A stretch of DNA of 62,881 nucleotides, taken from NCBI RefSeq assembly GCF_002608075.1, contig NZ_LAHA01000035.1, positions 14,453 through 77,333 on the forward strand, read 5' to 3'. The notes under the pieces were generated by a model. That model had not been told where the DNA came from, made no database searches, and saw only the letters and a list, made by a program, of their open reading frames with translations. Below, piece by piece: positions 10,794-60,673 of this stretch (positions within the stretch are counted from its first letter, which is position 1; each line of letters opens with the position of its first letter). This DNA comes from Nostoc linckia z4 (lineage in GTDB: Bacteria > Cyanobacteriota > Cyanobacteriia > Cyanobacteriales > Nostocaceae). A program made the translations under genes and the position numbers.

Positions 10794-13700
10794 TTGAAAA
10801 TCAGATTTTACAGTAATTCAGTAATGGCTACCTACTTTGAGGGTGTGATGTCTAAAGTAAGTATGGGTGAAAACTGGTTTTTAAAGCTAGGGATGGTTGC
10901 GGTTAATGTCAGACATTTAGATTGGTTACTTACATTAGGAATGGCGATCGCATTTCACCCAAATATCGCCATTGCACAAATCACCCCAGATACAACATTA
11001 CCCAATAATAGCAATGTAAATACACTAAATAACATTACAAATATCACTGGTGGCACACAAGCAGGAACTAATCTGTTTCACAGTTTCAGCGAATTTTCTG
11101 TTCTCAAAGATACTACAGCTTACTTTAATAATCCTCCAGATATTCAAAATATTATTAGTCGAGTTACAGGTGGTTCGCAATCAAAAATAGACGGAATTTT
11201 GCGGACGAACGCTACAGCGAATTTATTTTTAATTAATCCAAACGGCATTATTTTTGGAGAAAATGCCCGCTTAGATATTGGTGGTTCATTTATTGCTAGC
11301 ACAGCAAGTAGCATCAAATTTGCTAATGGTTTTGAGTTCAGTGCTACGACTCCTGAATCTACACCTTTACTAACGATAAATACACCCATTGGCTTGCAAT
11401 ATGGAGTTAATCCAGCCACTATTGAGGTCAAAGGCGACGGTCAAGGTGTAAGGCTCACAGATGAATTGATTGATACAACAAATGCACTGCGAGTACCAGC
11501 CAATCAAACTTTAGCCTTGGTGGGTGGCGATATTTCCTTAGAGGGAGCAACGCTAAAGACAGCAGGGGGAAGAATAGAGTTAGGCAGTGTAGGGGATAAC
11601 AGTTTAGTTAGTCTCACACCGATAACTAAAGGTTTTGCCTTGAGCTACGATGGAGTGCAAAACTTTGGCAATATTCAACTATCAAAACTTTCAGCGGTAG
11701 ATGCCAGTGGCGCAGGTAGCGGTGACATCCAAATCCAGGGTCAGCGGGTTACCATAGCCGATGGTTCCCAGATAGAAGCAAGTACTCTGTTAGAAGAAAA
11801 AGGTGGGAATTTAGTAGTCAATGCTACTAATTCAGTAGAATTAATTGGTACATCTGCTGATGGTTACTTTTCCAGTGGCTTGCTTGCTTCTGCTTACTCA
11901 ACCGGGGATGCCGGAGACTTGACAATTAATACTCAAAATTTGCTTGTGCTAGATGGGGCGCAAGTAAGTACAGCCACATTTGGTACGGCTAAGGGCGCTT
12001 CTTTAACTGTCAATGCTCAAGATGTGCAACTGATTGGTACTACTGCCGATGGTCTTTTTCCCAGTGGCTTGTTTGTTTCTACTCAATCAACAGGAGATGG
12101 CGGAGACTTGACAATTAATACCCAAAATTTGCTGGCGATCGATGGGGCACAGGTAGCTGTATATACATCTGGTGCAGGTAAGGCGGGTTCTTTAACTGTC
12201 AATGCTAAAGATGTGCAAATGATTGGTACTGTCAATAGTCAGTTTCCCAGTGGCTTGTTCAATTATGCTTACTCAACCGGGGATGCCGGAGACTTGAGGA
12301 TTAATACCCAAAATTTGCTTGTGCGCGATGGAGCTAATGTTGCTACGCAGACATATAGTGCAGGTAAGACGGGTTCTATAACTGTCAATGCTGAAGATAT
12401 ACAACTAATTGGTAGGAGTCCAAATGGTGACTTTGCCAGTGACTTATCTGTTAACGCTGGTTTAGGGTCAACTGGGGATGCTGGAAATTTGACGATTAAT
12501 ACCCAACGTTTGCTCGTGCGGGATGGGGCATACGTTGATGCCAGCATATACGGTACAGGTAAGGGTGGTTCTTTAACTATCACTGCTAATGATATACAAC
12601 TGATTGGTACTTCTACTGATGGTCGCTTTAGGAGTGGCTTGTTTACTCAAGCTTATTCAGGAATAACTGGGGATGCCGGAAACTTGACAATTAATACCCA
12701 ACGTTTGCTTGTGCTAGATGGCGCACAAATAGATGCAGAGACATATGGTGCAGGTAAGGGGGGTTTTTTAACTATCACTGCTAAAGATGTACAACTGATT
12801 GGTACTTCTAGTAATGGTTACTTTCCTAGCGGCTTGTTGACTTCTACTCTCTCAACCGGAGATGCAGGAAACTTGAAAATTGATACCCAACAGTTGCTTG
12901 TGCGGGATGGGGCACTGATAAATACCAGTACATCGGGTACAGGTAAAGGAGGTTCTTTAACTGTCACTGCTAACGATGTGCAACTGATTGGTGAGTCTAT
13001 TGATGGTTATCTTAAGAGCCGTTTATTTACTACTGCTGCCGTTGGAACAACTGGCAATGCAGGAGATTTGACAATTAATACTCAATATTTGCTGGTACGG
13101 GATGGTGCATTTGTTGATGCCAGTACACAAGGTACAGGTAAAGGAGGTTCTTTAACTGTCAATGCTCAAGATGTGCAACTGATTGGTGTCTCTAGTGATG
13201 GGCGTTCTGGCAGTGGTTTGAATACATCTGCTCAGTCAGGGTCAACTGGCGATGCTGGAGACTTGACAATTAATACTCAACAGTTGCTCGTGGGCGATGG
13301 GGCACAGGTGGGTGCAACCACATCGGGCGTAGGCAAGGGAGGTTCTTTAACTGTCAATGCCAAAGATGTGCAATTGATTGGTACTACTGCTGATAGTCGC
13401 TTTCCCAGTGGCTTGTTTACTACTGCTTACACAGGAGCAACTGGGGATGCAAAATTTTTGACAATTAATACCCAACAATTGCTTGTACGTGATGGGGCAA
13501 AAATCAGCGCCGGAACACAGAGTGCAGGTAAAGGGGGTTCTTTAACTGTCAATGCTCAAGATGTGCAATTGATTGGTACGTCTGCTGATGGTAGTTCTAG
13601 TAGTGGCTTGTTTGCTTCTACTGAATCAACTGGGGATGCAGGAGATTTAAAGATTAGTAGCGATAAATTACTCGTTCAAGATGGGGCGATAATCACTGTC

Positions 13701-14528
13701 AGAAGCTCAGGTAAAGGAATTGCAGGGAATTTAAATATTGATGCTGACTTTATCCGTTTGAACAACAAGGCTTCTGTTGATGCTAATACCCAGGCTGTCA
13801 ACACTGACCCGACTCAAGAACAAGCTACTATTACTTTGCGCTCTCAAAATTTACTATTGCTTCGTAATAGTAAAATCACCACTAATGCTTCTGGAGAAAA
13901 TGTCATCGGTGGCAATATCAATATTAATACTGATTTTTTAGTTGCATCTGACAATAGTGATATCAGTGCTAATTCTGCTGACTTTCGAGGTGGTCAGGTG
14001 ATAATCAATGCCAAAGGAGTATTTGGTACTCAATTTCGTGATGCACTCACCCCAAATAGCGATATCACTGCTACAGGAGCTAATCAGCAGTTGAATGGTA
14101 CAGTGCAACTCAATACACCACAACAAGATCCCACAAATGGTTTAGAGGAATTGCCATTAGAAGTAGTGGATGCCTCACAATTAATTAACCAAAACTTCTG
14201 TGCCAAAAGAGGTAATAGTAGCTTCACCATCGTTGGACGTGGTGGTTTACCTTCTTCCCCCAACACTGTGCTTAACAATAATACAGTTTGGGAAGATTGG
14301 CGAGTCACTGCTGTGCCAACACAAGCAGCAGAGTACACCAGTAAAAGAGATATTGAGAAAACTTCAGCACTCAGTACAGAGATTGTAGAAGCTCAGGGGT
14401 GGGTTGTGAATGCTAAAGGTGAAGTGATACTGACAGCTGCTGCACCGACTCCAAGACCCCACAGCTTGAGGAATTTACTTCAAGGGGCGACAAGCGAGTT
14501 AAAGTGCTTGCTGTATAAGCAGCATTGA
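10794..14528 (+). CDS. Large exoprotein with a filamentous-hemagglutinin N-terminal (TPS) secretion domain and ~60-aa tandem repeats (TpsA-like)
   Basis: N-terminal TPS-domain signature (NLFHSFSEFSV...ANLFLINPNGIIFGENARLDIGGSFIAST). About ten repeats of GDAGDLTINTQ.LLV.DGA...GKGGSLTVNA.DVQLIGT. The start codon is uncertain; several in-frame Met/TTG candidates. Confidence 0.7.
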   Translation: MKIRFYSNSVMATYFEGVMSKVSMGENWFLKLGMVAVNVRHLDWLLTLGMAIAFHPNIAIAQITPDTTLPNNSNVNTLNNITNITGGTQAGTNLFHSFSEFSVLKDTTAYFNNPPDIQNIISRVTGGSQSKIDGILRTNATANLFLINPNGIIFGENARLDIGGSFIASTASSIKFANGFEFSATTPESTPLLTINTPIGLQYGVNPATIEVKGDGQGVRLTDELIDTTNALRVPANQTLALVGGDISLEGATLKTAGGRIELGSVGDNSLVSLTPITKGFALSYDGVQNFGNIQLSKLSAVDASGAGSGDIQIQGQRVTIADGSQIEASTLLEEKGGNLVVNATNSVELIGTSADGYFSSGLLASAYSTGDAGDLTINTQNLLVLDGAQVSTATFGTAKGASLTVNAQDVQLIGTTADGLFPSGLFVSTQSTGDGGDLTINTQNLLAIDGAQVAVYTSGAGKAGSLTVNAKDVQMIGTVNSQFPSGLFNYAYSTGDAGDLRINTQNLLVRDGANVATQTYSAGKTGSITVNAEDIQLIGRSPNGDFASDLSVNAGLGSTGDAGNLTINTQRLLVRDGAYVDASIYGTGKGGSLTITANDIQLIGTSTDGRFRSGLFTQAYSGITGDAGNLTINTQRLLVLDGAQIDAETYGAGKGGFLTITAKDVQLIGTSSNGYFPSGLLTSTLSTGDAGNLKIDTQQLLVRDGALINTSTSGTGKGGSLTVTANDVQLIGESIDGYLKSRLFTTAAVGTTGNAGDLTINTQYLLVRDGAFVDASTQGTGKGGSLTVNAQDVQLIGVSSDGRSGSGLNTSAQSGSTGDAGDLTINTQQLLVGDGAQVGATTSGVGKGGSLTVNAKDVQLIGTTADSRFPSGLFTTAYTGATGDAKFLTINTQQLLVRDGAKISAGTQSAGKGGSLTVNAQDVQLIGTSADGSSSSGLFASTESTGDAGDLKISSDKLLVQDGAIITVRSSGKGIAGNLNIDADFIRLNNKASVDANTQAVNTDPTQEQATITLRSQNLLLLRNSKITTNASGENVIGGNININTDFLVASDNSDISANSADFRGGQVIINAKGVFGTQFRDALTPNSDITATGANQQLNGTVQLNTPQQDPTNGLEELPLEVVDASQLINQNFCAKRGNSSFTIVGRGGLPSSPNTVLNNNTVWEDWRVTAVPTQAAEYTSKRDIEKTSALSTEIVEAQGWVVNAKGEVILTAAAPTPRPHSLRNLLQGATSELKCLLYKQH

Positions 14529-24853: not shown

Positions 24854-26216
24854 ATGACTCCTCCAGAAAATCAAAACATCATCGAAGAAAGAAAAGAACT
24901 AATTAAGGAAGTACTAAGCGCTTATCCCGAAAAAGCAGCTAAAAAACGGGAAAAGCACCTAAACGTATACGAAGAAGGTAAGAGCGATTGCGGCGTTAAA
25001 TCTAACATCAAATCTCTTCCTGGTGTAATGACCGCTCGTGGTTGTGCTTACGCCGGTTCAAAAGGTGTGGTTTGGGGCCCTATTAAGGACATGATCCACA
25101 TCAGCCACGGGCCTGTAGGTTGCGGTTACTGGTCTTGGTCTGGTCGTCGTAACTACTACATTGGTACTACAGGTGTAGACACCTTTGGTACCATGCACTT
25201 CACCTCTGACTTCCAAGAACGGGATATCGTTTTCGGTGGTGACAAAAAACTCACCAAACTCATCCAAGAATTGGAAGTTCTTTTCCCTCTCAACCGTGGT
25301 GTTTCCATTCAATCTGAATGTCCCATCGGTCTAATCGGGGATGACATCGAAGCAGTAGCTCGGAACACATCCAAAGAAATTGGCAAGCCAGTTGTTCCCG
25401 TTCGTTGCGAAGGTTTCCGCGGTGTTTCTCAGTCCTTGGGTCACCACATCGCTAACGACATGGTGCGTGACTGGGTGTTCACCAGAGCCGACAAAGAGAA
25501 AAAAGAAGGCAAATTACAATTCGAGTCTACTCCTTACGACGTAGCAATCATCGGTGACTACAACATCGGTGGTGATGCTTGGGCTAGCCGGATTCTGTTA
25601 GAAGAACTGGGCTTGCGCGTAGTTGCTCAGTGGTCTGGTGATGGTACAATCAACGAAATGTTGATGACACCGAACGTGAAGATGAACTTGATTCACTGCT
25701 ACCGTTCGATGAACTACATCAGCCGTCACATGGAAGAAGCTTATGGTATACCCTGGTTGGAGTACAATTTCTTCGGCCCCACCAAGATTGCTGAATCCTT
25801 ACGGGAAATCGCTTCTAAATTTGACTCCAAGATCCAAGAAAACGCTGAGAAGATCATCGCTAAGTATCAGCCCACAATGGATGCGATCGTTAACAAGTAT
25901 CGCCCCCGTTTGGAAGGTAAGACCGTTGCGATGATGGTTGGTGGTTTGCGTCCTCGCCACGTTGTACCCGCTTTCCAAGATTTGGGTATGAAGATGGTCG
26001 GTACAGGTTATGAGTTCGCTCACAACGACGACTACAAACGTACCACCCACTACATCGAAAACGGCACCATCGTTTACGATGACGTAACTGCTTATGAATT
26101 CGAGGAATTTGTAAAAGCACTCAAGCCAGACTTAATTGCTTCTGGTGTGAAAGAGAAGTACGTCTTCCAAAAGATGGGTCTACCCTTCCGTCAAATGCAC
26201 TCCTGGGATTACTCCG
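24854..26216 (+). CDS. nifD: Nitrogenase MoFe protein alpha subunit NifD, 5' segment (interrupted by the nifD element at the GGATTACTCCG repeat)
   Basis: NifD N-terminal sequence ([21 protein letters not shown]...). After ...SWDYS the reading frame runs into element sequence and ends in an aberrant tail ([30 protein letters not shown]). The true C-terminus is encoded at 58716..58855. Confidence 0.9.
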
Positions 26217-26591
26217 AACCTAGCGATGCCTTCTCTTTCAGAGACGCTACCGCGAACGGCGGGCTTCGCCAACGCACTTACAAGTCAATTAAATCAATAT
26301 TTTTTTAGCTATCGGAGAAAAAAGAGCCTATTTCTAGCCTAAATCCAAATTACAAGCTTATTCATTAACAATCTGTTTTAATACTTCAGACAGTATAACT
26401 CTTATGTAATCTGGTTTTTAGATTTGAAAAGCATTTTGCTCCAAGAAAAACTGTTAAATAAAAGACTATTTTAGATGACGATTTTTTAGATTAAATGGCT
26501 AAATTTTTTTGTGTAGCACAAAGACGCAAATAAGAATGCAAAAATTCTGAATTTTTCTAAAGTGTAAGGTAATACTATATGCTGGTCTAAC

Positions 26592-26924
26592 TTAAACTCG
26601 CAATGCATCACGCATAAAAATCACTAATTTTGGAAGTGCCTGAAAAAATTCCTTTTCGTTATTGAATTGGTGAGTTTCAAGAAAGACATTGTTACTTGTA
26701 GATATTTCAATAATTTCCATTACACAAGCTCCTGACTCCCAAACTGTTACTCTACCAAGATGTAATAAACTCTCAAAATCAAGACACATAGCTGAATTAT
26801 CACTAGGTTGACAGTAGGTCAGCGTGTATTTCAGCTGATAAGCAGCAAAACGTGACTTTAATCCTGATTGAAATCTGTCAAAACCTCGTTCTGAGATTAG
26901 TTTTGTTAGTGGATTGATACTCAT
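26592..26924 (-). CDS. Hypothetical protein
   Basis: ORF only; no recognisable motifs. First gene inside the element's left border. Confidence 0.3.
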   Translation of the reverse strand: MSINPLTKLISERGFDRFQSGLKSRFAAYQLKYTLTYCQPSDNSAMCLDFESLLHLGRVTVWESGACVMEIIEISTSNNVFLETHQFNNEKEFFQALPKLVIFMRDALRV

Positions 26925-27014: not shown

Positions 27015-27677
27015 ATGACAATTTTGATCGTAGAAACTCTATGCTCCGAAGCTGCTATATTTTCAGCAACCGAGTCTTTACATCCAGAACCTTTGCTATA
27101 TGGTGTGACTGATGGTAAGGCTGTCGGGACATACTTGGAACAAAAATTTAGACTTTATCTCAAACAGCGATATGAATTTGTAGAGGGTAATTCTGCAAGC
27201 AGTATTGACTTTCCAGGGTTACTTGTAGATGTGAAGGTAACAAGCATTCGACAACCACAATCATCATGTCCTTTCAAATCTGCACGTCAAAAGATATTTG
27301 GGCTTGGGTATTCGCTGCTGATTTTCGTCTACGATAAAACAGACAATAGTACGAACCGCACAGCAACCCTAAATATTTTGCATACTATTTATGTAAGCGC
27401 CGAAAGAACCGCAGATTTTCAGATGACTCGTGCAATTCGCAATATCATAGCAAACGAAGGTAATAAAGATGATTTAATTGCCTTCATGCTCGATCGCAAT
27501 TTACCCGTTGATGAAATTGAGGCAAGCAACATTGCCGATGAAATTATGAGCAATCCACCGGTACAGGGTTTTCTGACTATTTCCAACGCTTTGCAATGGC
27601 GACTCCAGTATGGAAGAGTAATAGAACGTGCTGGTCAAGAAGATGGTATAATTCCTGTTTACAAAATTAATCAATGA
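27015..27677 (+). CDS. Putative PD-(D/E)xK restriction endonuclease
   Basis: IDFPGLLVDVKV fits a D...(D/E)xK nuclease core. Its stop overlaps the start of the downstream methyltransferase-like gene (ATGA), which indicates translational coupling. Confidence 0.4.
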   Translation: MTILIVETLCSEAAIFSATESLHPEPLLYGVTDGKAVGTYLEQKFRLYLKQRYEFVEGNSASSIDFPGLLVDVKVTSIRQPQSSCPFKSARQKIFGLGYSLLIFVYDKTDNSTNRTATLNILHTIYVSAERTADFQMTRAIRNIIANEGNKDDLIAFMLDRNLPVDEIEASNIADEIMSNPPVQGFLTISNALQWRLQYGRVIERAGQEDGIIPVYKINQ

Positions 27678-29116
27678 CTCATACTGCACATAAAACAAAG
27701 ATAGAGTACGGAGATTTCCAGACACCATTAGAATTAGCTAATAAAGTATGTAAAAAGCTAGTTGCACTCGGCATAACACCAGATATTATAGTTGAGCCAA
27801 CGTGTGGAGTTGGTAATTTTATTGAAGCAGCTTTAGATTCATTTCAATCAGTAAATAAAATTTTTGGAGTTGAAATCAATCCCGATTATTTAAATCAAGC
27901 TCAAACAAAAGCTAAATTTGTTAATCATAAAAGAATTGAAATTATATATGGAAATTTTTTTAAATTTGATTGGTCATCAATTATAGAAAAATCAAATCAT
28001 CAAATATTAGTAATTGGTAATTTACCTTGGGTAACAAACTCGCAGCAAGGTAGCATTGATGGAAAGAATTTACCAAATAAGAGTAATTTCCAAAACTATT
28101 CTGGTTTAGATGCAATTACAGGTAAGAGTAATTTTGATATATCTGAATGGATGTTAATTCAAGTTGTGCAATGGCTACAAAAGCGTGAAGGTTATCTAGC
28201 GATTTTATGTAAGAGTTCTGTTGCTAGGAAAATATTAACGTATATTAGTTCTCAAAAATTACATCTTGCTTACTGTGCAACTTACAAAATAGATACAAAA
28301 AAATATTTTGATGCTACTGTTGACGCGTGTTTACTGTTATGTAGATTTGAGTCAAATTCCAAAAATTATTTCTGTGATGTATTCAGTAGCCTTGAAACTT
28401 CTAATTATTATCGAATAGGTTATTGGAATAATGTACTTGTCAGAGATATTATTACATTTGAAAAACTACAAAATCTATACGATAAAAAATCAAAAATAAA
28501 ATGGCGCTCTGGTATTAAGCATGATTGCGCCAGTGTGATGGAGTTTCGCAAAATTAACAACACTCTGATTAATGGATTGGGAGAAGCTGTTGGTATTGAA
28601 GAAACATATCTGTTTCCTTTGCTTAAAGGTTCCTATGTTGCTCAAAATAAAACAAAGGTTACTGATAGATATGTTTTAGTAACTCAAAGATTTGTGGGTG
28701 AATCTATCGAACATATTAAAAATTACGCTCCTAAAACTTGGAACTATCTAGAAGCATATTCACAATACCTCGACAAAAGAAAAAGTAAGATTTATCAAAA
28801 TAACCCTCGATTTTCTATTTTTGGTGTAGGTTCGTATACTTTTGCACCTTGGAAAATTGCAATTTGTGGACTTTACAAAAAATTGGACTTTAGATTGATA
28901 GGTAAGATAGAAGAAAAACCTACTGTTTTTGATGATACAGTTTACTTTATTAGCTTTGATGATGAGAAAATTGCATATAAAACTTTTGAACTTTTGACTT
29001 CTTCAATAGCAAAAGAATTTTATTCGTCTCTAATTTTTTGGGATGAAAAGCGCCCAATCAAGTCTAGTATTTTAAATAAATTAAACTTGGCAGCTTTGGC
29101 AGAAGTATTAATTTGA
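27674..29116 (+). CDS. Putative DNA methyltransferase (gamma-class N6-adenine-like)
   Basis: Motif I-like EPTCGVGNFIEAA near the N-terminus, followed by a motif IV-like GNLPW where NPPY/NPPW is expected. The C-terminal half could be a target-recognition domain. Confidence 0.45.
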   Translation: MTHTAHKTKIEYGDFQTPLELANKVCKKLVALGITPDIIVEPTCGVGNFIEAALDSFQSVNKIFGVEINPDYLNQAQTKAKFVNHKRIEIIYGNFFKFDWSSIIEKSNHQILVIGNLPWVTNSQQGSIDGKNLPNKSNFQNYSGLDAITGKSNFDISEWMLIQVVQWLQKREGYLAILCKSSVARKILTYISSQKLHLAYCATYKIDTKKYFDATVDACLLLCRFESNSKNYFCDVFSSLETSNYYRIGYWNNVLVRDIITFEKLQNLYDKKSKIKWRSGIKHDCASVMEFRKINNTLINGLGEAVGIEETYLFPLLKGSYVAQNKTKVTDRYVLVTQRFVGESIEHIKNYAPKTWNYLEAYSQYLDKRKSKIYQNNPRFSIFGVGSYTFAPWKIAICGLYKKLDFRLIGKIEEKPTVFDDTVYFISFDDEKIAYKTFELLTSSIAKEFYSSLIFWDEKRPIKSSILNKLNLAALAEVLI

Positions 29117-29240: not shown

Positions 29241-30779
29241 TCACTGCCCGTTAATCCGAATCAAGTCTGTCAAAATATTATCCAAACTGCCGTTAACTTG
29301 AATGCGATCGATTTTCTCTGCAATGCGTTCTAAAACTTCGAGTTCCTTGAGACGCAAAGCTACAGGGTTATCTTCCATCACTTTGGCAGTGTTTAACATA
29401 CTGCGGGTGGCGGCGGTTTCTTCTCTGCGTCTGACTACGTTTGCTTGAGCAGCTTTTTCGGCTTCGACTACTTTGCTCAAGATTGTCTTAATCTCGCCGG
29501 GTAAGATAATATCTTTGACGCCTACAGAATCTACTTCGATTCCATAGTCGGCGGTTTTTTGGCGGATATATTCAGATATGCTTGTGTCAATTGCACCTTT
29601 ATCTTCTAATAAGGCATCTAAGTTGCGTTCGCCGATCGCACCACGCAATGCAAATTGTAATTCTTTGTATAAGAAGCCGGCAATATCTGACAAGCCGCTT
29701 TTTGCTCTCAAGGGATCGAGGATGCGGAAGCCAGCTGTCAAATTTAACCGCAGAGGTACTTTATCCTTAGAAAGGATATCTTGACCTGATACTTCCATGT
29801 TTTGCAGTCTCAAGTCGATGGTTTCGGTTTGAAAGGAGCGTCCAAATAACCACCAAGCGTGTATACCTGGCGATCGCTGTCCTTGAAACTCTTGATTAAT
29901 ATACAGTAGTCCGGTGTGCTGTGCGGGTACTTGGCATGTATGCAAACAGTTGCGACTGAGCAATTTCACTTCTGCCGAACCTTCAACCAACTCAGCAACT
30001 AAGCGAGGCTCTAACTGAGCATCAGTGCTGATGTCGATAATTTCCACCTCAACACCTTGCCAAAACAGCTTGCGACTTGTGGGTGGTAAAATAGAAATCG
30101 CTTTACCTCGATACCGCACAATTGCAACTTGCCAATTCAGTAATTGTACTGTTTGGCAGTAAGCAGCAATAAAATCTGGATGTTTTTCAATTAGAACATC
30201 TTCTAGAGGAAAGTCTGGGTTAGGAACAATTCGGCTAAGAGTCCGTACTGTAACATCCCGATCCACTGACCAAAAAGCATATTCTCCAGGTTCTAGAGGT
30301 CGCACAAAATCATTTTGTACATACAGTAAACCAATCTCATACTCCGAAATTTGGAACTTTTTCACTCCATTCAAGCTGATTTTACGTAGTTGCTGCACAA
30401 AAGAACTAGGCAATTCTAAACTTTCTTCTAAGTTGAAGACATAAGATTCTACCTCAATAAAACCACGCCAAAAAGCTACCAATTGATTTGGTGCAACGCT
30501 TACCCAATTCTGGCCGTAGCGTACTAAAGCGGCTTGGTTGTATGCGGTTCTGATAATCAGTAAATGTTGTTGCAGTTCAGTCTGATGATTTCGCAACAAC
30601 AGCTCCAGGTTTTCAATTTGAGCTTGTGGCTGGTTGAGGTCATAAGTTTTTACTTGCCAATGACGACCAAAATAAGTATGTGTACCAGGCTGTAAAATTT
30701 TCTGGAAGTCGCTGCGGTGATATAAAATACCGATTTCGTTAGGTTTTATATAAAATGTTTTCCACATAGTAATTTGCAT
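29241..30779 (-). CDS. SPFH/band-7 (stomatin/prohibitin-like) domain protein with three degenerate N-terminal partial repeats
   Basis: C-terminal 170 aa have the SPFH pattern followed by a coiled coil. The N-terminus has three about 110-aa repeats of IG(I/L)LY...DF...L.PG.H.(F/W). Confidence 0.55.
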   Translation of the reverse strand: MQITMWKTFYIKPNEIGILYHRSDFQKILQPGTHTYFGRHWQVKTYDLNQPQAQIENLELLLRNHQTELQQHLLIIRTAYNQAALVRYGQNWVSVAPNQLVAFWRGFIEVESYVFNLEESLELPSSFVQQLRKISLNGVKKFQISEYEIGLLYVQNDFVRPLEPGEYAFWSVDRDVTVRTLSRIVPNPDFPLEDVLIEKHPDFIAAYCQTVQLLNWQVAIVRYRGKAISILPPTSRKLFWQGVEVEIIDISTDAQLEPRLVAELVEGSAEVKLLSRNCLHTCQVPAQHTGLLYINQEFQGQRSPGIHAWWLFGRSFQTETIDLRLQNMEVSGQDILSKDKVPLRLNLTAGFRILDPLRAKSGLSDIAGFLYKELQFALRGAIGERNLDALLEDKGAIDTSISEYIRQKTADYGIEVDSVGVKDIILPGEIKTILSKVVEAEKAAQANVVRRREETAATRSMLNTAKVMEDNPVALRLKELEVLERIAEKIDRIQVNGSLDNILTDLIRINGQ

Positions 30780-31287
30780 AGATAATTTGACCAGATTTAA
30801 TCAAAACATTTATAACCTCGCTGGAAACTAAATACCACCTATAATTCTGGAGTTGACAAACCTATAAATAAAGGTTGAAGGATTTGTTTGAGGTTTTGTA
30901 GTATTATATTACATTTTACTCTGCCGGCGCAGGTGTTTATAGTTTGGGATGCGGGCAAAAGCTTCTCCAGAACTGGATTAAGATTGCTGTTAGTTTTAAT
31001 AGACGGCTCAAAGGCAATCTAGAAAAACAGAACCGCGCTCAAATATGCCGATCGCTTTGCCAATCTAGAATTTCCGAAGTCAAAGCAGATATAGGAAAAC
31101 GAAGGTACATACTCAAGTTGGGGAGAGATTACAGTTGCGCTGGCTCCTTTACTGTTACGAACACCTGCATGACAGAGTACAAAAAACAAAAAGTTTTTTC
31201 ACTGGGTTTTTTTGAATCGCCCAATACATCTAGCTGTGACACTGCCTTGTCCCTAACAAGGTGCCCGTACCCAGGGCAGGGGTTTTT

Positions 31288-31363
31288 TGGCTGAAAGTAT
31301 AGGAATCGAACCTATAATGAATCGGCGATACACCGATCGCTCTACCAAATGAGCTAACTTTCA
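31288..31363 (-). tRNA. tRNA-like element (76 nt, encoded CCA) with a non-canonical anticodon loop (UGUAUCG); probably a pseudo-tRNA
   Basis: Folds by eye into a cloverleaf: acceptor TGAAAGT/ACTTTCA, D arm GCTC-ATTTGGTA-GAGC, T arm ATAGG-TTCGATT-CCTAT. It lacks U33 and a purine at position 37. Confidence 0.35.
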
Positions 31364-31533
31364 TGGTGAAATAGTTGGAAGCATTAAGCGGTATACGCTA
31401 TTACCAGAGGTTGGCGCACCAGTCGGGTATACAGAACCCAAACTATAGCTTTGTGGCTTTGTCGCTATCTCGCTTCAAATTTAGCACAGGAAAAAAATAT
31501 TACAAGGGAACGGGGAAATCGAGGAATTATCGG

Positions 31534-32586
31534 CTATTCTTGCGATTCATATTTTTCTTTGATGCGTTCCACACGCGATCGCAGTTCTGCACCTTTGTTG
31601 GGGTTAATCATTGCTACATAATTTGCAAACCCAGTAATTGCAGCAATTATATTAGGTGAATTGCCCCAATGTTTGCCTGACAAGCCTTCTTGTTCGATTT
31701 GATATAAAGTTGCACGAAAAGCTTTTAATGTCTTTTTAGATATATTTAATTGTGTATTTACAACAACACCTGTTACTTGTTGTTGCACAGATTTACCTAA
31801 AATATTGGTTTTATGAGAATTAACAGTAAAACCTTCACTATTAATAATTAATTTCGCATTTTTAATTAACTTATATCTTCTCTCCGATGCCTGTCCAGAA
31901 GCAGAAAATGTTAAATCATCAGCATAGCGTGTATAGGAAAATTCCAGATTTTCAGCCATTTTTACCATCCGCCGATCGAGATGATAGCAAATTAAATTTG
32001 AAATAACAGGACTGGTAGGCGAACCTTGAGGTAAGTGACGATTTTCTATACTAATATTGTGAGCTTGTTCATGTATTTCTATTTCCGAAGTAGTACAGAT
32101 CAGTGCAAAAATATTCGCTGCAATTCCTGAATAACCACACCCAGAAAATAATTCTTTGACACGTTTGTAGGTAATTGATTGAAAAAAGTTTTGTAAATCA
32201 ATGTGAACTATGACATCAGCACCAACATGAGGTTGAGCGTTGGTGACTATGGAACGATTTTTACAAAAACCATGTGCTGCATGATGAACTTCTAATTTTT
32301 CTAAAATATTTTCTAAAATCCACCTTTGAGCAGCCTTAAGATGGGGTTTGGGTGCAGAAATTAGTCTTTCTCCACCAGTCTTTTTTGAAATTTTGAAATG
32401 GACGTAATGTTTAACTTCAGAACCAGGAAAACTAGATGTCAAAAAACGCAGTTGTCCTGGGTTTATCCCCATTGCACAGGCTATTTCTGCGGCAGAATGA
32501 TATTCAGCTAAACCATGCGATCGCAATACTGCTGAATTACCCTCAATTGCTAGCGGGGTGGTGGTTAAATTTGTGGCGTACATCAT
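31534..32586 (-). CDS. Retron-type reverse transcriptase
   Basis: RT motifs hIDLqnFFqSI, LPQGSPTSP and YADDLTF. The retron-characteristic NAxxH (TNAQPHV) and VTG (QQQVTGVVV) motifs are present. 350 aa with no maturase or endonuclease domain. Confidence 0.65.
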   Translation of the reverse strand: MMYATNLTTTPLAIEGNSAVLRSHGLAEYHSAAEIACAMGINPGQLRFLTSSFPGSEVKHYVHFKISKKTGGERLISAPKPHLKAAQRWILENILEKLEVHHAAHGFCKNRSIVTNAQPHVGADVIVHIDLQNFFQSITYKRVKELFSGCGYSGIAANIFALICTTSEIEIHEQAHNISIENRHLPQGSPTSPVISNLICYHLDRRMVKMAENLEFSYTRYADDLTFSASGQASERRYKLIKNAKLIINSEGFTVNSHKTNILGKSVQQQVTGVVVNTQLNISKKTLKAFRATLYQIEQEGLSGKHWGNSPNIIAAITGFANYVAMINPNKGAELRSRVERIKEKYESQE

Positions 32587-32968
32587 AGCAAAAGATTTTT
32601 GGACTCTGCTAATGCAAGTGTTTACAGTTGAGGTGCGGGCAAAAGTTTCTCCAGAACTGGATTAAGATTGCTGTCACTTTCCCCTGGTGGAAAAAGATAA
32701 CTGCGCTCAAATACACCGTTCTATTTGCCAATTCAAAATCTCCTTAGAGAAATCGATTGTGGAAAACGAAGGGACATACTCAAGTTAAGGAGAAATACAA
32801 TTGCGCTGGCTCCTTGACTGTAGCCATCAAACATCACCTTGGGAGTGATGAGCGACAGCAAAACACTTGCACCGCAGAGTTGAGAAAATGAGAGTCTCGA
32901 ATCTTTTGGGATTCGTACCATATTGGCTACCTTAAAAGGGTAGTGTCTTTTAACCCGGACAGGGTTTT

Positions 32969-33044
32969 TGGCAGAAAGTGTAAGAATCGAACCTACAACA
33001 AATCGATTATGAGTCGATCGCTCTTCCAATTGAGCTAACTTCCT
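32969..33044 (-). tRNA. tRNA(CAU)-like gene (76 nt, encoded CCA); second copy in tandem with the canonical tRNA-Met
   Basis: Cloverleaf by eye: acceptor AGGAAGT/ACTTTCT (one G-U pair); anticodon arm ATCGA-CUCAUAA-TCGAT, identical to the neighbouring tRNA; T arm GTAGG-TTCGATT-CTTAC. Confidence 0.5.
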
Positions 33045-33045
33045 T

Positions 33046-33121
33046 TGGTGTTTGATACAGGACTCGAACCTGCGACACATCGATTATGAGTCGATCGCTC
33101 TGCCAACTGAGCTAATCAAAC
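33046..33121 (-). tRNA. tRNA-Met (anticodon CAU; elongator-type, or tRNA-Ile2 if modified to lysidine), encoded CCA
   Basis: GTTTGAT-TA-GCTC-AGTTGGCA-GAGC-G-ATCGA-CTCATAA-TCGAT-GTGTC-GCAGG-TTCGAGT-CCTGT-ATCAAAC-A-CCA. G1-C72 pair, so not an initiator tRNA. Confidence 0.75.
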
Positions 33122-33540
33122 GATGGTATAGTTTCAAGTACTCGGCGACATACGCCCATACCATAGGTAGGCGCACCAGTCAGGCACACAGAACCCGAAC
33201 CATAGCTTTGTAACTTTCTTACTATTCCGCTTCAAATTTAGCACAATCAGATTGGGGTATGGAGATTAAGTACCAGTCACAGGACTTATATCATTTTGTA
33301 GTGAGTACTTAAGTCCTCAGAGACCATTTATAAAGTAAATCTTAAGTAGTAGCATGGCAAGCCCTAAATATTGCAATAGATTTTATTGTGGGATGGGTGT
33401 CCTCACCCGTCCGGGCGGGCAGGATGCCCACCCCACAAGAGTTTACTAATGCTCGATTTTAGTCTTGTCACGGCACTACATTAATTTTATTTTCGCTTTA
33501 TGAATAACCTCTCAGTCAATTACGAATTACTTTAAAAACT

Positions 33541-34233
33541 TCAGTCCGGAAAAGCTAAACCAGTCATAGGGTCGCGAATATACAACCCTAGTGTGAGACT
33601 ACGGATTGCTTCATCCCAAACGGGTATTAATTGTTCTGCTTGATCTGCCCAAAAATCGAATGTAATCAAGCACTGAACATTTGACCCCAAACCAATGCAA
33701 ATCCGCGAAAAAGCTTCCCGTGGTTCTTCTTGTGTGTCAATAAACTTAATTTCTGTCCAAACAATTTTAGCGGTTTGGCGCTTAACGGTGATAATTTCTC
33801 CCTTTTCAATGGGATTGCGACTGTCGTCTTCTACAATTTTCCTCAAGGTAGATTTAAGTGGAAACTGACTCCAATCGTGGGGAGGTAATTGATTAAAAGA
33901 TACTTCTAGACAGCAATCATCGTTGGGTGGTTTTTTATCGACGAATTTGAAAGATTTTTCTTGTGGCTCAAAAACCCAATCTTGAGGGACATTGAAGCGA
34001 ACAGCCCCACGATTAGCAACAAATATTTTGTAGCCCGATGGAGATTCCCAGCGATGATCGGGTTTTAATTCAAGCGTTTCTTTAATCCACTGGAGATTGC
34101 TTTTTTTACGCTTTGCCATAAATAGTGTTTTTGGGATCTTTGGTGAAGAGGGCATCACCGAACAGTCTGTCACAGGGAAAAGTTGTTTTAGTAACAGCTT
34201 ACGCCGCAGATGCTTTGGGTTTACCGCAGGCAT
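33541..34233 (-). CDS. Hypothetical protein (start probably at the internal MAKRKKSNLQWIK)
   Basis: ORF only. Flanked on both sides by copies of a small GC-rich repeat (33390..33440 and 34437..34480). Confidence 0.35.
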   Translation of the reverse strand: MPAVNPKHLRRKLLLKQLFPVTDCSVMPSSPKIPKTLFMAKRKKSNLQWIKETLELKPDHRWESPSGYKIFVANRGAVRFNVPQDWVFEPQEKSFKFVDKKPPNDDCCLEVSFNQLPPHDWSQFPLKSTLRKIVEDDSRNPIEKGEIITVKRQTAKIVWTEIKFIDTQEEPREAFSRICIGLGSNVQCLITFDFWADQAEQLIPVWDEAIRSLTLGLYIRDPMTGLAFPD

Positions 34234-36223: not shown

Positions 36224-36333
36224 AGAATTAATCTTAATTTGAATTCAAAGCTTACGATCGCCTACCTCACGACTATCGTAACTGGTCATTACATTGCAAG
36301 AATATAGATAAACCTAAATTTAGTTAGCAAAAG

Positions 36334-36556
36334 CAGCTTTGACTTTCTCAAACCCCAGTTTACTTTCTCATTTTGGTGTTTTCCGCAAGCAAAATCAGCT
36401 TTGACTTTCTCAAACCCCAGTTTACTTTCTCATTTTGGTGTTTTCCGCAAGTAAAATCAGCTTTGACTTTCTCAAACCCCAGTTTGCTTTCTCATTTTGG
36501 TGTTTTCCGCAAGTAAAATCAACTTTGACTTTCTCAAACCCCAGTTTGCTTTCTTT
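36334..36556. repeat. Tandem direct repeat, 62-bp unit, about 3.6 copies, immediately upstream of the 36699 gene
   Basis: Unit cagctttgactttctcaaaccccagtttactttctcattttggtgttttccgcaag[ct]aaaat starts at 36334, 36396, 36458 and 36520. Each unit contains a TTGACT -35-like hexamer. Confidence 0.85.
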
Positions 36557-36698
36557 TTTCAGTAGTTCGCGCATTCATGACAAATATCGCCCTTGTAGCA
36601 AAAGTTATTGCAGATTTGCCGGAATTCTCTCAAGCCGATCTATACGGAATTTTTTAAGGTAAAGAATATTAACCGTACTTAATTACAAGGTGTAGATT

Positions 36699-47551: not shown

Positions 47552-49222
47552 TTATCCATTTTTTAAATTCAGAAAATTTTGTCGAATCCACAATCTAAAT
47601 ATGCGTTTTAAAAGCCACTTTGTTAAGGGTTTTCCAATAAATATCCGGACATTCAGCTTAATAAAACTCCATAACTTAGATAAACGAGAACCATTATTTT
47701 TCATATCAAGCGGTTCTAGCCTGTCATTGATTAGATCCACCAAAGATTCTAAACGGAAGCTTAACTGATTTACAATTTCTTGACGTGTTTCTATGTCAAC
47801 CTCTGCCATTAACCTTCGTAATTCTGCAAGTTGATCTCGTTTGATGGCGTCATTATCTTGTAGTTGTTCTCCTTCTGGTGAACGAGGTTTTGCTAATTGA
47901 CTTAACTCTTTTTTTGCTTCATCCCAAGTATTTAAATTTTTATCGTTAACCTTACAATTAACTATCCACTCAAGAGGTGGCATTTTATTAAGTTCAAGGT
48001 TGAGTAAATCTTGGAGTTGACTCTTTGCTTGAAGATTGGACAGTTCAAATTGAGTGCGTTCCCGACCAATGTTGTAATCATAAGCCCGGAATTTCTTTTC
48101 AAGAAATCCAGCAAAGGCTGAGAAGACATCGCCAATTAACTCAAAGTCATTAGCTGTAATGGAAAATACTGGAGCATCCATTTCTTCCATAATCCAATCT
48201 TGGAAGCGAGACTGGTGAAAAATTGAACTCAGCAATGCAATTCCTGTTACCAAGAGATCGTTATCTTTTTTGATAAAAGGATTTTCGGGTAATTGGCGTT
48301 GACCTGGTGCAATATAAAGGTAATATCTTTTATCAGATAAATCTTGATTTTGATCGATGCGATCCACGAGGAGTTTAGCCATACCAATAGGCTCATTTTC
48401 AAAAACTCCACCATCTGTGTACAGATACTCCTCATTACGATCGCGACGCTTACCAAATCCACCAAAACGTCGAATTTTCCGAAGTTTAAAAGCGAAGGGA
48501 AATGCACCAGATGATAGACCGGCTTCGCGTAACTCACTCCAGTTAGTATCTCTAAGTTTTTTCCATTCTATTGACTCGCGTCCTGTTCTTGGATCTCTTA
48601 TTGTCTCTCGATCTATTTCATCAAGCGTCACATTCCCAAATCCATCGCGACGAGCTAGACACACAAATTGATCCTTATAACGGGTATATGCAAACTTTAG
48701 TGTTCCTTCTTTTCGGCCTTCACGAGCGTAATCAGTTGTAAGAGGGAAAGTATAGCCAGACAAGTTGGACATAGCTATACCAACATAAATCTCAGACGCA
48801 GCAGCCGGATGCTTTTGGTTGATTTGAACACGATCTTGCAGATATTTATTCCCAATTTTTTCAACAACTGCTGTTTGTAAAAGTGAGTATTTTTGATCTT
48901 CTTTTTCAACTTTAATTAATTCCCGAATATCAACTTCATCAACCCATGCATTGTAGAGTGGATTATTATATGGTTTGCGTAAAGACTGGTCTGGACGAAA
49001 GGGTGCAGGCTGATCGCCACAAAGAAGATGTTGGACTAAAATACAAGCCGTCATCCCACCCGCCGAAGCACCTGTAATTACATCAATTTCAATGGGTTCT
49101 TCATGATTTTTTATATCTTCGTTATGTCTGGCGATCGCTTCCAAAATTTCATACATAACGCCAGCTTCATAACTGCCAAGTGATACTGCTCCACTGATAA
49201 CAACGGCAAGCTTTTTGGGCAT
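47552..49222 (-). CDS. Patatin-like phospholipase with a C-terminal about 200-aa extension
   Basis: Gly-rich oxyanion loop (VVISGAVSLGSYEAG), GxSxG nucleophile (ITGASAGGM) and a downstream catalytic DGG (YLYTDGGVFENEP). Confidence 0.7.
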   Translation of the reverse strand: MPKKLAVVISGAVSLGSYEAGVMYEILEAIARHNEDIKNHEEPIEIDVITGASAGGMTACILVQHLLCGDQPAPFRPDQSLRKPYNNPLYNAWVDEVDIRELIKVEKEDQKYSLLQTAVVEKIGNKYLQDRVQINQKHPAAASEIYVGIAMSNLSGYTFPLTTDYAREGRKEGTLKFAYTRYKDQFVCLARRDGFGNVTLDEIDRETIRDPRTGRESIEWKKLRDTNWSELREAGLSSGAFPFAFKLRKIRRFGGFGKRRDRNEEYLYTDGGVFENEPIGMAKLLVDRIDQNQDLSDKRYYLYIAPGQRQLPENPFIKKDNDLLVTGIALLSSIFHQSRFQDWIMEEMDAPVFSITANDFELIGDVFSAFAGFLEKKFRAYDYNIGRERTQFELSNLQAKSQLQDLLNLELNKMPPLEWIVNCKVNDKNLNTWDEAKKELSQLAKPRSPEGEQLQDNDAIKRDQLAELRRLMAEVDIETRQEIVNQLSFRLESLVDLINDRLEPLDMKNNGSRLSKLWSFIKLNVRIFIGKPLTKWLLKRIFRLWIRQNFLNLKNG

Positions 49223-51924: not shown

Positions 51925-52120
51925 AAAGTTTTCCTTTTTGGATTAATTTATAAAGAACGCTAATGTTCCTTGACACTGAGTTCTTTATATACCACTAAAT
52001 TACGCAATTAGCAGATGCACCAGCCTGAGTAAAGCTACATAATTTATAGAACATTCACAATACAGCATAAATACGGTTATATTTGCTGAAATTTTTGAAT
52101 ATTAAGGGATTTACGACTTG

Positions 52121-52298
52121 AAAACTTGATTTAGAAGTCCAAAACTTGATTTAGAAGTTCAAAACTTGATTTAGAAGTCCAAAACTTGATTTAGAAGTTC
52201 AAAACTTGATTTACAAGTCCAAAACTTGATTTACAAGTCCAAAACTTGATTTACAAGTCCAAAACTTGATTTACAAGTCCAAAACTTGATTTACCAGC
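52121..52298. repeat. Tandem direct repeat, 20-bp unit (aaaacttgattta[gc]aagt[ct]c), about 9 copies
   Basis: Units start every 20 bp from 52121 to 52281. The first four have tagaag, the next four tacaag, and the last is degenerate. Confidence 0.9.
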
Positions 52299-52349
52299 AA
52301 GCTGTTGCACAGCACAGCCTAAATTAGGGATGCGATCGCGCTTATTTTC

Positions 52350-54527: not shown

Positions 54528-56225
54528 TTAATCTTGAAGGAAACGTAACAAGTCTGAATTTTGTAAAAAGTAACTAAAACTAGGATGATATAACCTATAG
54601 TGCAACTTTCCGTCCACTTCTTGTTTATATAGAAACTGTTTCCACTCCTCTAGTATTAACTGAAGTTCATATTGAGATTCAAATAAAGAAACCATATCAG
54701 TGAAAGATATTAGGCTAACATGACCTGAACTAGCATTAGCTAACTTACGAAGAAGCCGCTTGTGTCTGATATCACTTTTGTGATTAATATTCATACGGCG
54801 TAAATGACTCTCGTAATACCCTCTCAAACCTTCTGGAAGATTATCAAGACTATCCAAGTTTTTATAAACGCCTCGCTCAATATCTACTAATACATTTTTT
54901 AAATACCTAAAGTTTCTTTGACTTTTAAGTGTAAGAGTTTCAATAAGTTTTTCTTCACTTTCAAAAAGTCTTTCTTCACTACATGTTTTATCATCTTGTG
55001 AAGTGCGAAGCTTTTCTCTTCTGTCTAAATACTTTTTGATATATGTTCTACAATCTTCCTTCCATGTGTCACCAATAAGGCAGCTAATATCTTCTATCAT
55101 TAAAGGCACTTCAATTTCTAAGAAAATATTTTTTGGACGCTGAGACATAAAGAAAAAAATACCTTCTGGAAGATATTCCGGCAATTTTAGTATATTTTCT
55201 GACTCGTTGCTTAAATATACTTCGTCCAAAGCATCTATGACAATAACTAACTGTGACTTGTGCTTATGTAAAACTTTTTTACTTATCTCCTCAAGTAAAC
55301 TATTAAGTAGCGAAATATCAACATTTTCTAACTTTTCTTTAAAATGTCTTAGTTGATCATAATATTTATGATATAATTGGTTACAAATACTTTCTAGAAA
55401 ATCATAAATCTGGTTAAGTCCTTGGGGTTGCTGTACAAAAAAACAGGGACATTTATTTTCTAATACATACTTAGCTAGTATTGCTGTTTTTCCAACTCCA
55501 GGATCGCCCTGCAATATAAAATATCCTTGTGAATGATCTTTTTGAAATTTTTTAAATCTCTCAATAATATCTTTTCTTTCAATAAAATCTTCTGGATCTG
55601 TATGGTACTTAATTAAAGTCTGAAATTCTAAAGGAGGTTCAAATATATTGCTATTAATAAAGGAATTTGAATTGCCAAAAAATTCATTTTCATAACGTTC
55701 TTTTAGGGATTTAATAGTTTCATCGTTACTTTCGCTGATAACAATATTGTTGACAGTAAATCTCCAATCTTTAGACCCCTGCCTTGTAGATTTATGGCGA
55801 TCATCTTTTAGAAGTTTGTGTTCATCTGCATCCTTTATTACGTCTCCAAGTGATTTAATTACAGTTTCCTTTTGAAAATCGTTGGATATATCAGGATAAT
55901 TTTTACAAAAATCCTGTGATTCTTGTGAGCATATTGAATTTTTTACATACGAATTAACTAGATTTTCTAAATTTTTTAGAGTGCAACAAACTTCAATAGT
56001 TTTATTCCTTATATCATCACTAATGTTTCCCTTGAAATCCGGATATGGTTTATTTTCATCCTCACCTTGATTGCGAATGTAGTCTTTTAATGCCATAATA
56101 AGTAAAATAGCCCGTTGCATTTTTTTGTTACTAATTTTTCTGTCTTCTTTCGATGCGTTCATATTTGATAATATATATAAATAAGAGTTTGCACATTTTT
56201 TAGGTAAGTATATATAAATATACAT
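54528..56225 (-). CDS. P-loop NTPase of the NACHT/STAND-like class with a unique about 230-aa N-terminal domain (start probably at an internal Met)
   Basis: Walker A GDPGVGKTAILAKY, Walker B LVIVIDALDEV, a helical C-terminal region. Strongly AT-rich. Confidence 0.55.
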   Translation of the reverse strand: MYIYIYLPKKCANSYLYILSNMNASKEDRKISNKKMQRAILLIMALKDYIRNQGEDENKPYPDFKGNISDDIRNKTIEVCCTLKNLENLVNSYVKNSICSQESQDFCKNYPDISNDFQKETVIKSLGDVIKDADEHKLLKDDRHKSTRQGSKDWRFTVNNIVISESNDETIKSLKERYENEFFGNSNSFINSNIFEPPLEFQTLIKYHTDPEDFIERKDIIERFKKFQKDHSQGYFILQGDPGVGKTAILAKYVLENKCPCFFVQQPQGLNQIYDFLESICNQLYHKYYDQLRHFKEKLENVDISLLNSLLEEISKKVLHKHKSQLVIVIDALDEVYLSNESENILKLPEYLPEGIFFFMSQRPKNIFLEIEVPLMIEDISCLIGDTWKEDCRTYIKKYLDRREKLRTSQDDKTCSEERLFESEEKLIETLTLKSQRNFRYLKNVLVDIERGVYKNLDSLDNLPEGLRGYYESHLRRMNINHKSDIRHKRLLRKLANASSGHVSLISFTDMVSLFESQYELQLILEEWKQFLYKQEVDGKLHYRLYHPSFSYFLQNSDLLRFLQD

Positions 56226-59137: not shown

Positions 59138-60673
59138 ATGCCTCAGAATCCAGATAAAATTCAAGACCACGTAGAGCTGTTTCACCAGCCGGAATACCAA
59201 CAATTATTCCAAAACAAAAAAGAATTTGAAAACGGTCACGACCCCGAAGAAGTAAAGCGGGTTGCAGAATGGACTAAGAGTTGGGATTATCGCGAAAAGA
59301 ATTTCGCTCGTGAAGCTCTAACCGTCAACCCTGCTAAAGGTTGCCAACCTCTAGGAGCAATCTTCGCTGCTGTTGGATTTGAAGGCACTCTGCCCTTTGT
59401 TCAAGGTTCCCAAGGTTGCGTTGCGTACTTCCGCACCCACTTAACCCGTCACTACAAAGAACCATTCTCTGGTGTATCTTCTTCCATGACAGAAGATGCA
59501 GCGGTGTTCGGTGGTCTGCAAAACATGATTGATGGCTTGGCGAACTCTTACCAACTTTACAAGCCCAAGATGATTGCTGTCTGCACCACCTGTATGGCAG
59601 AAGTAATTGGTGATGACTTACAAGCTTTCATCAACAACGCTAAGAAAGCTGGTTCAGTTCCTCAAGACTTCCCAGTTCCTTACGCTCACACCCCCAGCTT
59701 TGTTGGTTCCCACATCACTGGTTACGACAACATGATGAAGGGTATTCTTTCTAACTTGACCGCAGGTCAAAAGAAAGAAACCAGCAATGGCAAAATCAAC
59801 TTCGTTCCAGGTTTTGACACCTACGTTGGCAACAACCGCGAAATCAAACGCATTGCTTCTCTGTTTGGCTTTGACTACACAATTCTAGCTGACAACAGCG
59901 ACTACTTGGATTCACCCAACACTGGTGAGTTCGATATGTATCCAGGTGGTACAAAGCTGGAAGATGCAGCAGATTCAATTAATGGTAAAGCTACAGTATT
60001 CCTGCAATCACACTCCACAGTCAAGACCCGCGAGTACATCGAAAAAGAATGGAAGCAACCAACCGTTGTTTCCCGTCCTTGGGGTATTAAAGCTACTGAT
60101 GAGTTCTTGATGAAACTCAGCGAACTATCTGGTAAGCCCATTCCTGAAGAATTGGAAATCGAACGCGGTCGTGCAGTTGACGCAATGACTGACTCCCACG
60201 CATGGGTTCATGGCAAGCGCTTCGCTATCTACGGCGAACCCGATTTAGTGTACAGCGTTGTGGGCTTTATGCTGGAAATGGGTGCTGAACCAGTTCATAT
60301 TTTGGTTCACAACAGCAACGAAGAATTTGAAAAAGAAATCAAAGAATTGCTTGCTTCTAGCCCCTTCGGTCAAAATGCAAAAGTTTGGCCTGGTAAAGAC
60401 CTGTGGCACATGCGTTCTCTGTTGTTCACCGAACCCGTAGACTTGTTGATTGGTAACACCTACGGTAAGTACCTGTGGCGCGATACCAAGATTCCCTTAG
60501 TAAGAATTGGCTATCCTATTATGGATCGTCACCACTTGCACCGCTACAGCACCATCGGTTACCAAGGTGTAATCAACTTGCTCAACTGGATTGTAAATAC
60601 AATCTTCGAGGAAATCGATCGCAACACCAACATTCCTTCCAAGACCGATATTTCCTACGACTTGATTCGTTAG
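59138..60673 (+). CDS. nifK: Nitrogenase MoFe protein beta subunit NifK
   Basis: 511 aa. The NifK N-terminal extension and conserved Cys for the P-cluster. Confidence 0.95.

Follow-up and report, generated by a model that had tools for sequence, protein, structure and literature searches.

What is the relation between a retron-type reverse transcriptase (RT) gene and the SPFH-domain protein gene that follows it on the minus strand of a 62,881-nt stretch of Nostoc linckia z4 DNA (contig NZ_LAHA01000035.1, positions 14,453 to 77,333; hereafter the window)? The initial annotation had proposed a retron-like pair of RT and adjacent SPFH effector, which might be new or coincidental. Both open reading frames (ORFs) were recovered as annotated, co-oriented and separated by 754 nt of noncoding DNA. 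We think that the RT and the SPFH protein are the two protein arms of a conserved cyanobacterial cassette whose hub is a structured RNA gene, duplicated upstream of the RT; we assign this reading a probability of about one half. The elements of the cassette are as follows.

29241..30779, minus strand: predicted soluble SPFH/slipin protein of 512 aa, ortholog of Anabaena PCC 7120 alr0740 (81% identity)
30897..30913, minus strand: predicted TrcR-type operator TGTAATAT-A-ATACTACA, just past the closing helix of the RNA module and ~118 nt upstream of the SPFH start
30917..31489, minus strand: RNA module, SPFH-proximal copy, ~570 nt, conserved across genera
31534..32586, minus strand: short retron-type RT of 350 aa, clade 10 / type XIII, without the N-terminal extension of canonical members
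32602..33246, minus strand: RNA module, RT-upstream copy, 78% identical to the SPFH-proximal copy

Conservation of the gene order

An alignment of the RT was used to scan one genome per species; 80 loci were kept and their neighbouring genes were clustered. Five of the 80 loci had a short RT (~350–400 aa), no SWIM/WGR partners and an SPFH gene downstream. The same order of RT, gap and Band_7 gene was found in Oscillatoria nigro-viridis PCC 7112, Cyanosarcina radialis, Scytonema millei and three metagenome contigs, with different flanks each time. When genome loci, look-ups of further short RTs and metagenome loci were combined, the order RT, module, SPFH gene was present in 14 of the 15 resolvable short-RT loci among the matches listed (in Nostoc, Oscillatoria, Cyanosarcina, Scytonema, Chamaesiphon and metagenome contigs). 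In the five loci measured, the module starts 26–56 nt after the RT stop codon. The adjacency is thus conserved across genomes, and its recurrence across genera between unrelated flanks disposes of the suggestion that it was coincidental.

The module and the SPFH gene also occur together in the absence of the RT. A module profile search located the module directly upstream of the SPFH gene in Gloeothece PCC 7424 and upstream of the pair alr0739-alr0740 in Anabaena PCC 7120, with no RT at either place. A metagenome scan with the module motif, blind to the RT, detected at least 15 module loci among the matches listed, about six with an RT and about five clearly without; module and SPFH gene without RT were seen in L088, L089, L097 and L198. 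Since module and SPFH gene persist without the RT, the SPFH protein does not need it. The module is the constant element, and the RT, YdeI and the SPFH protein are partners of varying constancy, because the module occurs without the RT and, in one locus discussed below, without the SPFH gene. The YdeI/OmdA gene (alr0739-like), sought in the window and in the RT-bearing loci, was present only in L088 and L109.

The RT–RNA–SPFH cassette is real and uncatalogued, and the RT is an optional add-on. An SPFH protein of this kind, according to the initial annotation, is not known as a catalogued retron effector; the protein has no match in PADLOC, and a full-text literature search found no paper linking retrons and SPFH proteins. 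Literature searches combining retrons, tRNA-like elements and cyanobacteria returned nothing relevant.

A structured RNA module with tRNA-like units

Only a repeat (repeat A) and a pseudo-tRNA had initially been noted between the two genes. Both are present, and the region is not a mere spacer: it is a conserved, covarying structured RNA, the most constant element of the cassette. The RT–SPFH gap measures 670–880 nt across genera and is strongly conserved. Repeat A is a portion of a ~600-nt direct repeat formed by the two module copies, one on either side of the RT; copies flanking the RT were also found in the Nostoc relatives, Oscillatoria PCC 7112 and L022.

The module generally begins with a promoter-like box and a 5′ multi-helix domain of ~115 nt. 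Between one and three tRNA-like units come next, and then a rod-like 3′ domain (~340 nt), whose closing helix is long (at least ~20 bp) and has an A-run after it. The SPFH-proximal copy has, in this order, an extended −10-like box TGCTAAATT, the 5′ junction domain (31366–31480), one tRNA-like unit (31288–31363) and the 3′ domain (30917–31282). The RT-upstream copy has the 5′ domain (33123–33237), two tRNA-like units with CAU loops (33046–33121 and 32969–33044) and the 3′ domain with an extra hairpin (32602–32965).

Covariation was assessed for both domains. In the 5′ domain 95.4% of cells were paired versus 24–44% in slid controls, and 12 of 30 pairs had compensatory changes; the corresponding values for the 3′ domain were 94.6% versus 36–43%, with 28 of 73 pairs compensatory. 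For neither domain did any of 500 shuffles reach the observed value.

The unit at 31288–31363 (minus strand) was called Ile-TAT by ARAGORN and scored 51.9 bits with the Rfam tRNA model. Its anticodon loop, UGUAUCG, is non-canonical (G33, C37) and is kept across genera; both units of the RT-upstream copy have the canonical loop CUCAUAA. Across loci the units occupy two paralogous slots, whose acceptor stems (GUUUGAU and GAAAGU) are conserved. The majority have an encoded CCA end, and their anticodons are highly variable or non-canonical across loci.

Rfam scans of the window region and of related loci detected tRNA only, apart from one sub-threshold YrlA match (28 bits versus a gathering threshold of 69) over tandem tRNA-like units. 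A scan of IMG/VR viral contigs with the module motif gave 17 chance matches, none with module, RT or SPFH gene. Generic sigma-70 promoters and terminators were predicted no more often than in shuffled sequence, and this result was not used. GOLLD and ROOL are large ornate bacterial RNAs found beside tRNAs, and YrlA is the tRNA-like Y RNA of the rsr-rtcB operon. The module resembles them as a large structured noncoding RNA joined to tRNA-like units in an RNA-repair or translation-stress setting; it differs from them in having no matching Rfam model and in not being found in the IMG/VR contigs.

A presumably soluble SPFH protein with a predicted TrcR operator

The SPFH protein starts with two beta-rich repeats of ~135 aa, continues with a stomatin-like SPFH domain and ends in a long helix. 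Band_7 (Pfam) spans aa 283–454 with an E-value of 5e-29, and the best sequence match in PDB is stomatin (aa 302–489). The two repeats (aa 7–125 and aa 140–260) are 29% identical to each other (E = 3e-13), and both resemble the beginning of the true SPFH domain (~55 residues; E = 1e-6 to 2e-7), which bears out the triplicated N-terminal module of the initial annotation. The AlphaFold model (pLDDT 80.5) has the same two repeats, SPFH core and long helix. A Band 7 domain followed by a coiled-coil helix, as expected of the SPFH family, is present. Modelling the N-terminal repeats by themselves gave a poor structure (pLDDT 61), which was left out of the fold search. Repeat number seems to vary: a 670-aa variant in L229 (6637–8649), also downstream of a short RT and module, has a third N-terminal repeat, and database homologs of ~380, 510 and 650–675 aa suggest the same. 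In a Chamaesiphon metagenome-assembled genome (L017, 13171–19557) the SPFH gene downstream of RT and module is in three pieces with ORFs between them, which could be insertions or duplicated fragments.

Membrane SPFH proteins (stomatin, HflK/C, prohibitin, QmcA) have a transmembrane or hairpin anchor. The window protein, in contrast, has no hydrophobic segment or N-terminal membrane anchor (maximal 19-residue Kyte–Doolittle mean, 1.2), and it has two extra degenerate beta-rich repeats before the domain (three in the 670-aa variant). No NfeD partner was found among the called neighbours of its gene. As for the major vault protein (MVP), no Vault repeat was matched in Pfam, the combination of vault repeats, shoulder and cap helix was not found, and the TM-score is low (0.3); the repeats also differ in length (~55 aa in MVP, ~135 aa here). 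Genuine bacterial MVP homologs are different proteins (bioRxiv 10.1101/872010). The likeness to vaults is a resemblance only.

The ratio of nonsynonymous to synonymous substitution rates (dN/dS) of 0.06–0.09 indicates very strong purifying selection on the SPFH gene, and the protein is ~80% identical across cyanobacterial genera. Such conservation is not typical of defence effectors.

The TrcR regulon of Anabaena PCC 7120 offers a functional context. The TrcR box has the consensus TGTAGTAT and overlaps or lies near the −10 box (PMC10272220); tandem repeat operators of this kind were described earlier (PMC8421152). In a trcR deletion mutant alr0740 (slipin) was up 42-fold and alr0739 (YdeI) 72-fold, and the alr0739-alr0740 promoter was positive for TrcR in an electrophoretic mobility shift assay, the pair being TrcR-repressed (PMC10272220). 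Chloramphenicol induces alr0739-alr0740 together with the 26-gene trn tRNA array, rtcB and rsgA (PMC10272220; PMC9938897). The transcriptome analysis of TrcR explicitly excluded long noncoding RNAs, and the structured RNA upstream of alr0739-alr0740 goes without mention in the papers on the regulon (PMC10272220; PMC8421152).

The window has just two exact TGTAGTAT/ATACTACA boxes, and one of them is in the operator upstream of its SPFH gene, placed as in Anabaena. The other exact TGTAGTAT box (~11110–11117) is inside a long ORF (10794–14528) and is probably a chance match. An exact box at the same position, ahead of SPFH or YdeI-SPFH, was found in 10 of 10 related loci checked, and exact boxes also stand upstream of the RT in L001, L002 and L081. 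Judged by sequence and orthology, the SPFH gene has its own predicted, conserved TrcR-operator promoter and belongs, as predicted on the same grounds, to the known translation-stress regulon. The cryptic tRNA array and RtcB of that regulon fit the tRNA-like units of the window module. The Anabaena locus differs from the window in having no RT and in having the YdeI/OmdA gene alr0739 between RNA and SPFH gene.

A type XIII-like RT without type XIII partners

The best PADLOC model for the RT was RT_XIII (9.6e-150, profile positions 99–430 of 469); the next best reached 1e-91. RTs of L081 and L085, like that of the window, match RT_XIII with E about 1e-150. The Pfam RVT_1 match has an E-value of 1.7e-23, and the closest solved relative in PDB is the retron Ec86 RT (1.2e-39). 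Retron motifs of the NAXXH, VTG and YADD types are visible in the translation (NAQPH, VTG and YADD), and no integrase or endonuclease domain was found in the protein. With dN/dS values of 0.18–0.32 against relatives, the RT is under purifying selection.

The N-terminus is homologous to long forms starting at 'VYLGDRVSAGL'. Because the alignment to the long forms begins only there, we conclude that short RTs lost a charged N-terminal extension of ~135 aa. A misannotated start, suggested by overlap with the box region of relatives, was considered; the start was kept with some uncertainty, as homology to the long-form proteins reaches about residue 2–13. In a rough neighbour-joining (NJ) tree, the SPFH-linked RTs formed one clade beside a group of cyanobacterial and acidobacterial canonical type XIII RTs. 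Two RTs that group with the SPFH-linked clade have N-terminal TPR repeats (L028, 9497–11377; L030, 798–2915); being TPR-RT fusions without SPFH, a different architecture, they were not accepted as members. In Spirulina locus L020 (222–3837) the RT is type XIII-like and lacks SWIM/ARM partners; the gene that follows it, in the same orientation, resembles class II aminoacyl-tRNA synthetases and includes a KTSC domain.

Canonical loci in the 80-locus survey have WGR/HEAT-ARM_XIII, then SWIM_XIII, then an RT of ~470–510 aa. The two partner clusters, identified with PADLOC, were SWIM_XIII (1.3e-239; 58 of 80 loci) and WGR_XIII (E = 0; 50 of 80). Neither SWIM_XIII (WH-SWIM, cluster 114) nor WGR/HEAT-ARM_XIII (cluster 216) occurs in the window or in any short-RT locus. 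Canonical loci (L005–L032) also have a conserved RNA of ~250 nt, located ~30–280 nt past the SWIM_XIII stop codon and upstream of the RT, with terminal inverted repeats AATCACGCGC / GCGCGTGAT followed by a T-run and with a long central hairpin; this is presumably the type XIII msr-msd. In L005, L008 and L109 this RNA and the RT are separated by a 302-aa ORF that matches no family.

An nhmmer profile of the canonical RNA, built from 13 canonical loci, matched ~60 canonical loci across phyla, no SPFH-linked locus (window included) and not L109. The possibility that the module is a diverged type XIII msr-msd was rejected, as neither RNA's profile finds the other. In the structured RNA next to the window RT, a long terminal helix closes the 3′ domain, and neither a branching G nor a hairpin of the msd type could be assigned.

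The window RT thus shares with the type XIII retrons (Mx162, Mx65, Sa163, Ne144; PMC7736814) its clade 10 position and retron motifs, and the short-RT clade, like type XIII generally, looks more vertically inherited than most retrons. It differs from them in lacking the first ~100 profile positions (the N-terminal extension) and in having downstream a ~570-nt RNA with tRNA-like units and then an SPFH gene.

Genomic setting

The host is a heterocyst-forming cyanobacterium. Its nifD gene (24854–26308) is broken at 26206, within the classic 11-bp site GGATTACTCCG, which recurs at 58705; the NifD C-terminus continues in frame from 58706, after this second GGATTACTCCG, followed by nifK (59138–60673). 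Because these direct repeats flank the region and the NifD C-terminus and nifK resume beyond it, the cassette lies within a nifD excision element of ~32.5 kb (window 26206–58715). In the Nostoc relatives L002 and L196 the same cassette is a few kb from the homolog of the nifD junction; in other genera it is flanked by unrelated housekeeping genes.

Several other features of the element were recorded. At its left edge are a TriTu immunity-protein gene (26592–26924, minus strand) and a type II restriction-modification pair, REase_II (27015–27677, E = 1.2e-132) and MTase_II (27674–29116, E = 1.2e-238). A patatin-like phospholipase gene and an NPHP3_N/AAA_16 (STAND-like) ATPase gene (47552–49222 and 54528–56225) could be conflict-system genes. 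The ORF at 57050–58351 (minus strand) occupies the place expected for xisA and has no Pfam match at 1e-5. Two tandem arrays (52068–52333 and 36264–36573) repeat a 20-nt unit (GATTTAGAAGTYCAAAACTT) about 10 times and a 62-nt unit four times. On the upstream side of the RT-upstream module is a 230-aa ORF without family match (33541–34233), whose synteny extends to the Nostoc relatives L001, L002 and L144 and not to other genera.

Alternative explanations

The retron with an adjacent SPFH effector proposed in the initial annotation would, in its full form, be a bona fide anti-phage system: the RT would make multicopy single-stranded DNA (msDNA) from the adjacent RNA, the RT-msDNA complex would restrain the SPFH protein, and phage would release it to arrest or kill the cell. 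The RT is clearly in the retron clade; RT, noncoding RNA and third gene keep a constant order and orientation, and retrons are tripartite and modular (PMC7736814). The window cassette is also near the restriction-modification pair and the TriTu gene, within the mobile-like nifD element. This explanation nonetheless appears unlikely. RNA and SPFH gene are conserved without the RT, the SPFH protein changes too little between genera, the canonical msr-msd RNA and type XIII partners are absent, and the IMG/VR viral contigs yielded no module. Outside this Nostoc clade the flanks are housekeeping genes rather than defence islands. The predicted stress-regulated promoter of the SPFH gene (PMC10272220) points the same way. 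The initial annotation had named an independent SPFH promoter and conserved SPFH neighbourhoods elsewhere as signs against a joint system; these are found in part.

A rather unlikely alternative is that RT and SPFH gene are uncoupled neighbours: a selfish or domesticated element, made up of the RT by itself or of RT and RNA together, would settle by the tRNA-like module, and the SPFH gene would simply be the module's usual downstream gene. The module is indeed the common denominator, being found with RT and no SPFH gene in L109 and with SPFH gene and no RT in four other loci (L088, L089, L097 and L198). In Nostoc, Oscillatoria and L022 the RT has a module copy on either side, as expected from insertion or duplication by homologous recombination, and the RT at the same junction in L109 is of the canonical long type. 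However, the RT has no integrase or endonuclease domain of its own, its clade is intact (dN/dS about 0.2–0.3), and it diverges roughly in step with the SPFH protein, with similar dS for the closest Nostoc relative. The exact TrcR boxes before the RT in three loci suggest co-regulation with the SPFH gene, and only one of the 15 resolvable short RTs among the matches listed is elsewhere. That same RT, in L228, is the sole exception that could be cited for chance adjacency, or for a decaying RT pseudogene; either is extremely improbable and, for practical purposes, refuted by the neighbourhood survey, given 14 loci across genera with differing flanks among the matches listed and an RT with intact catalytic motifs under purifying selection.

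For the RT and the SPFH protein as two arms of an RNA-centred cassette, several observations weigh on the other side. L228 has a short RT with neither module nor SPFH gene, and about half of the loci sampled irrespective of the RT, among the matches listed, have module and SPFH gene without it. In L109 a long canonical-type RT is followed, at the usual distance, by the module and then by a YdeI gene, and there is no SPFH gene; because this locus combines RT and module without SPFH, the direct partner of the RT may be only the RNA. In the window itself the box upstream of the RT is degenerate. The tRNA-like units with canonical CAU, GAU or GUU loops could be plain extra tRNAs, and the RT phylogeny is a simple, crude NJ tree. 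Finally, every functional step of the cassette model given below is one that we infer for Nostoc linckia z4.

A model of the cassette and its significance

In the proposed model, the SPFH protein would be a soluble, oligomeric, stomatin- or vault-like scaffold produced under translational stress, and it would work together with the module RNA or with processed pieces of it. The RT would derive from Mx162-type (type XIII) retron RTs by loss of the N-terminal extension, the msr-msd RNA and the SWIM/ARM partners. Recruited to the module RNA in a subset of lineages, it would bind this RNA and probably copy part of it into cDNA, thus adding an RT-dependent layer to the way the cell responds when tRNA is damaged or translation is blocked, possibly also by phage attack. 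A bolder version, which we consider quite doubtful, is that a soluble vault-like SPFH cage and a large RNA with tRNA-like units, copied by the RT in some lineages and made on translation or tRNA damage, represent a new kind of bacterial ribonucleoprotein.

The comparison carries a caution for annotation: before an RT next to gene X is called retron defence, gene X and the spacer should be checked for independent existence. It also brings to light an anchor-less SPFH protein tied to RNA biology and a conserved structured RNA of ~570 nt, with tRNA-like units embedded in it and without an Rfam family, directly upstream of a translation-inhibitor-responsive gene pair in the model strain Anabaena PCC 7120. 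The short RTs form a clade of retron-type enzymes, relatives of Mx162 (the first retron found), that have exchanged their RNA and protein partners, and this clade is a tractable handle on the role of vertically inherited type XIII-like RTs. If the bolder, ribonucleoprotein version is true, a housekeeping stress pathway would have domesticated type XIII-like RTs, and the module would represent a new class of large structured RNA.

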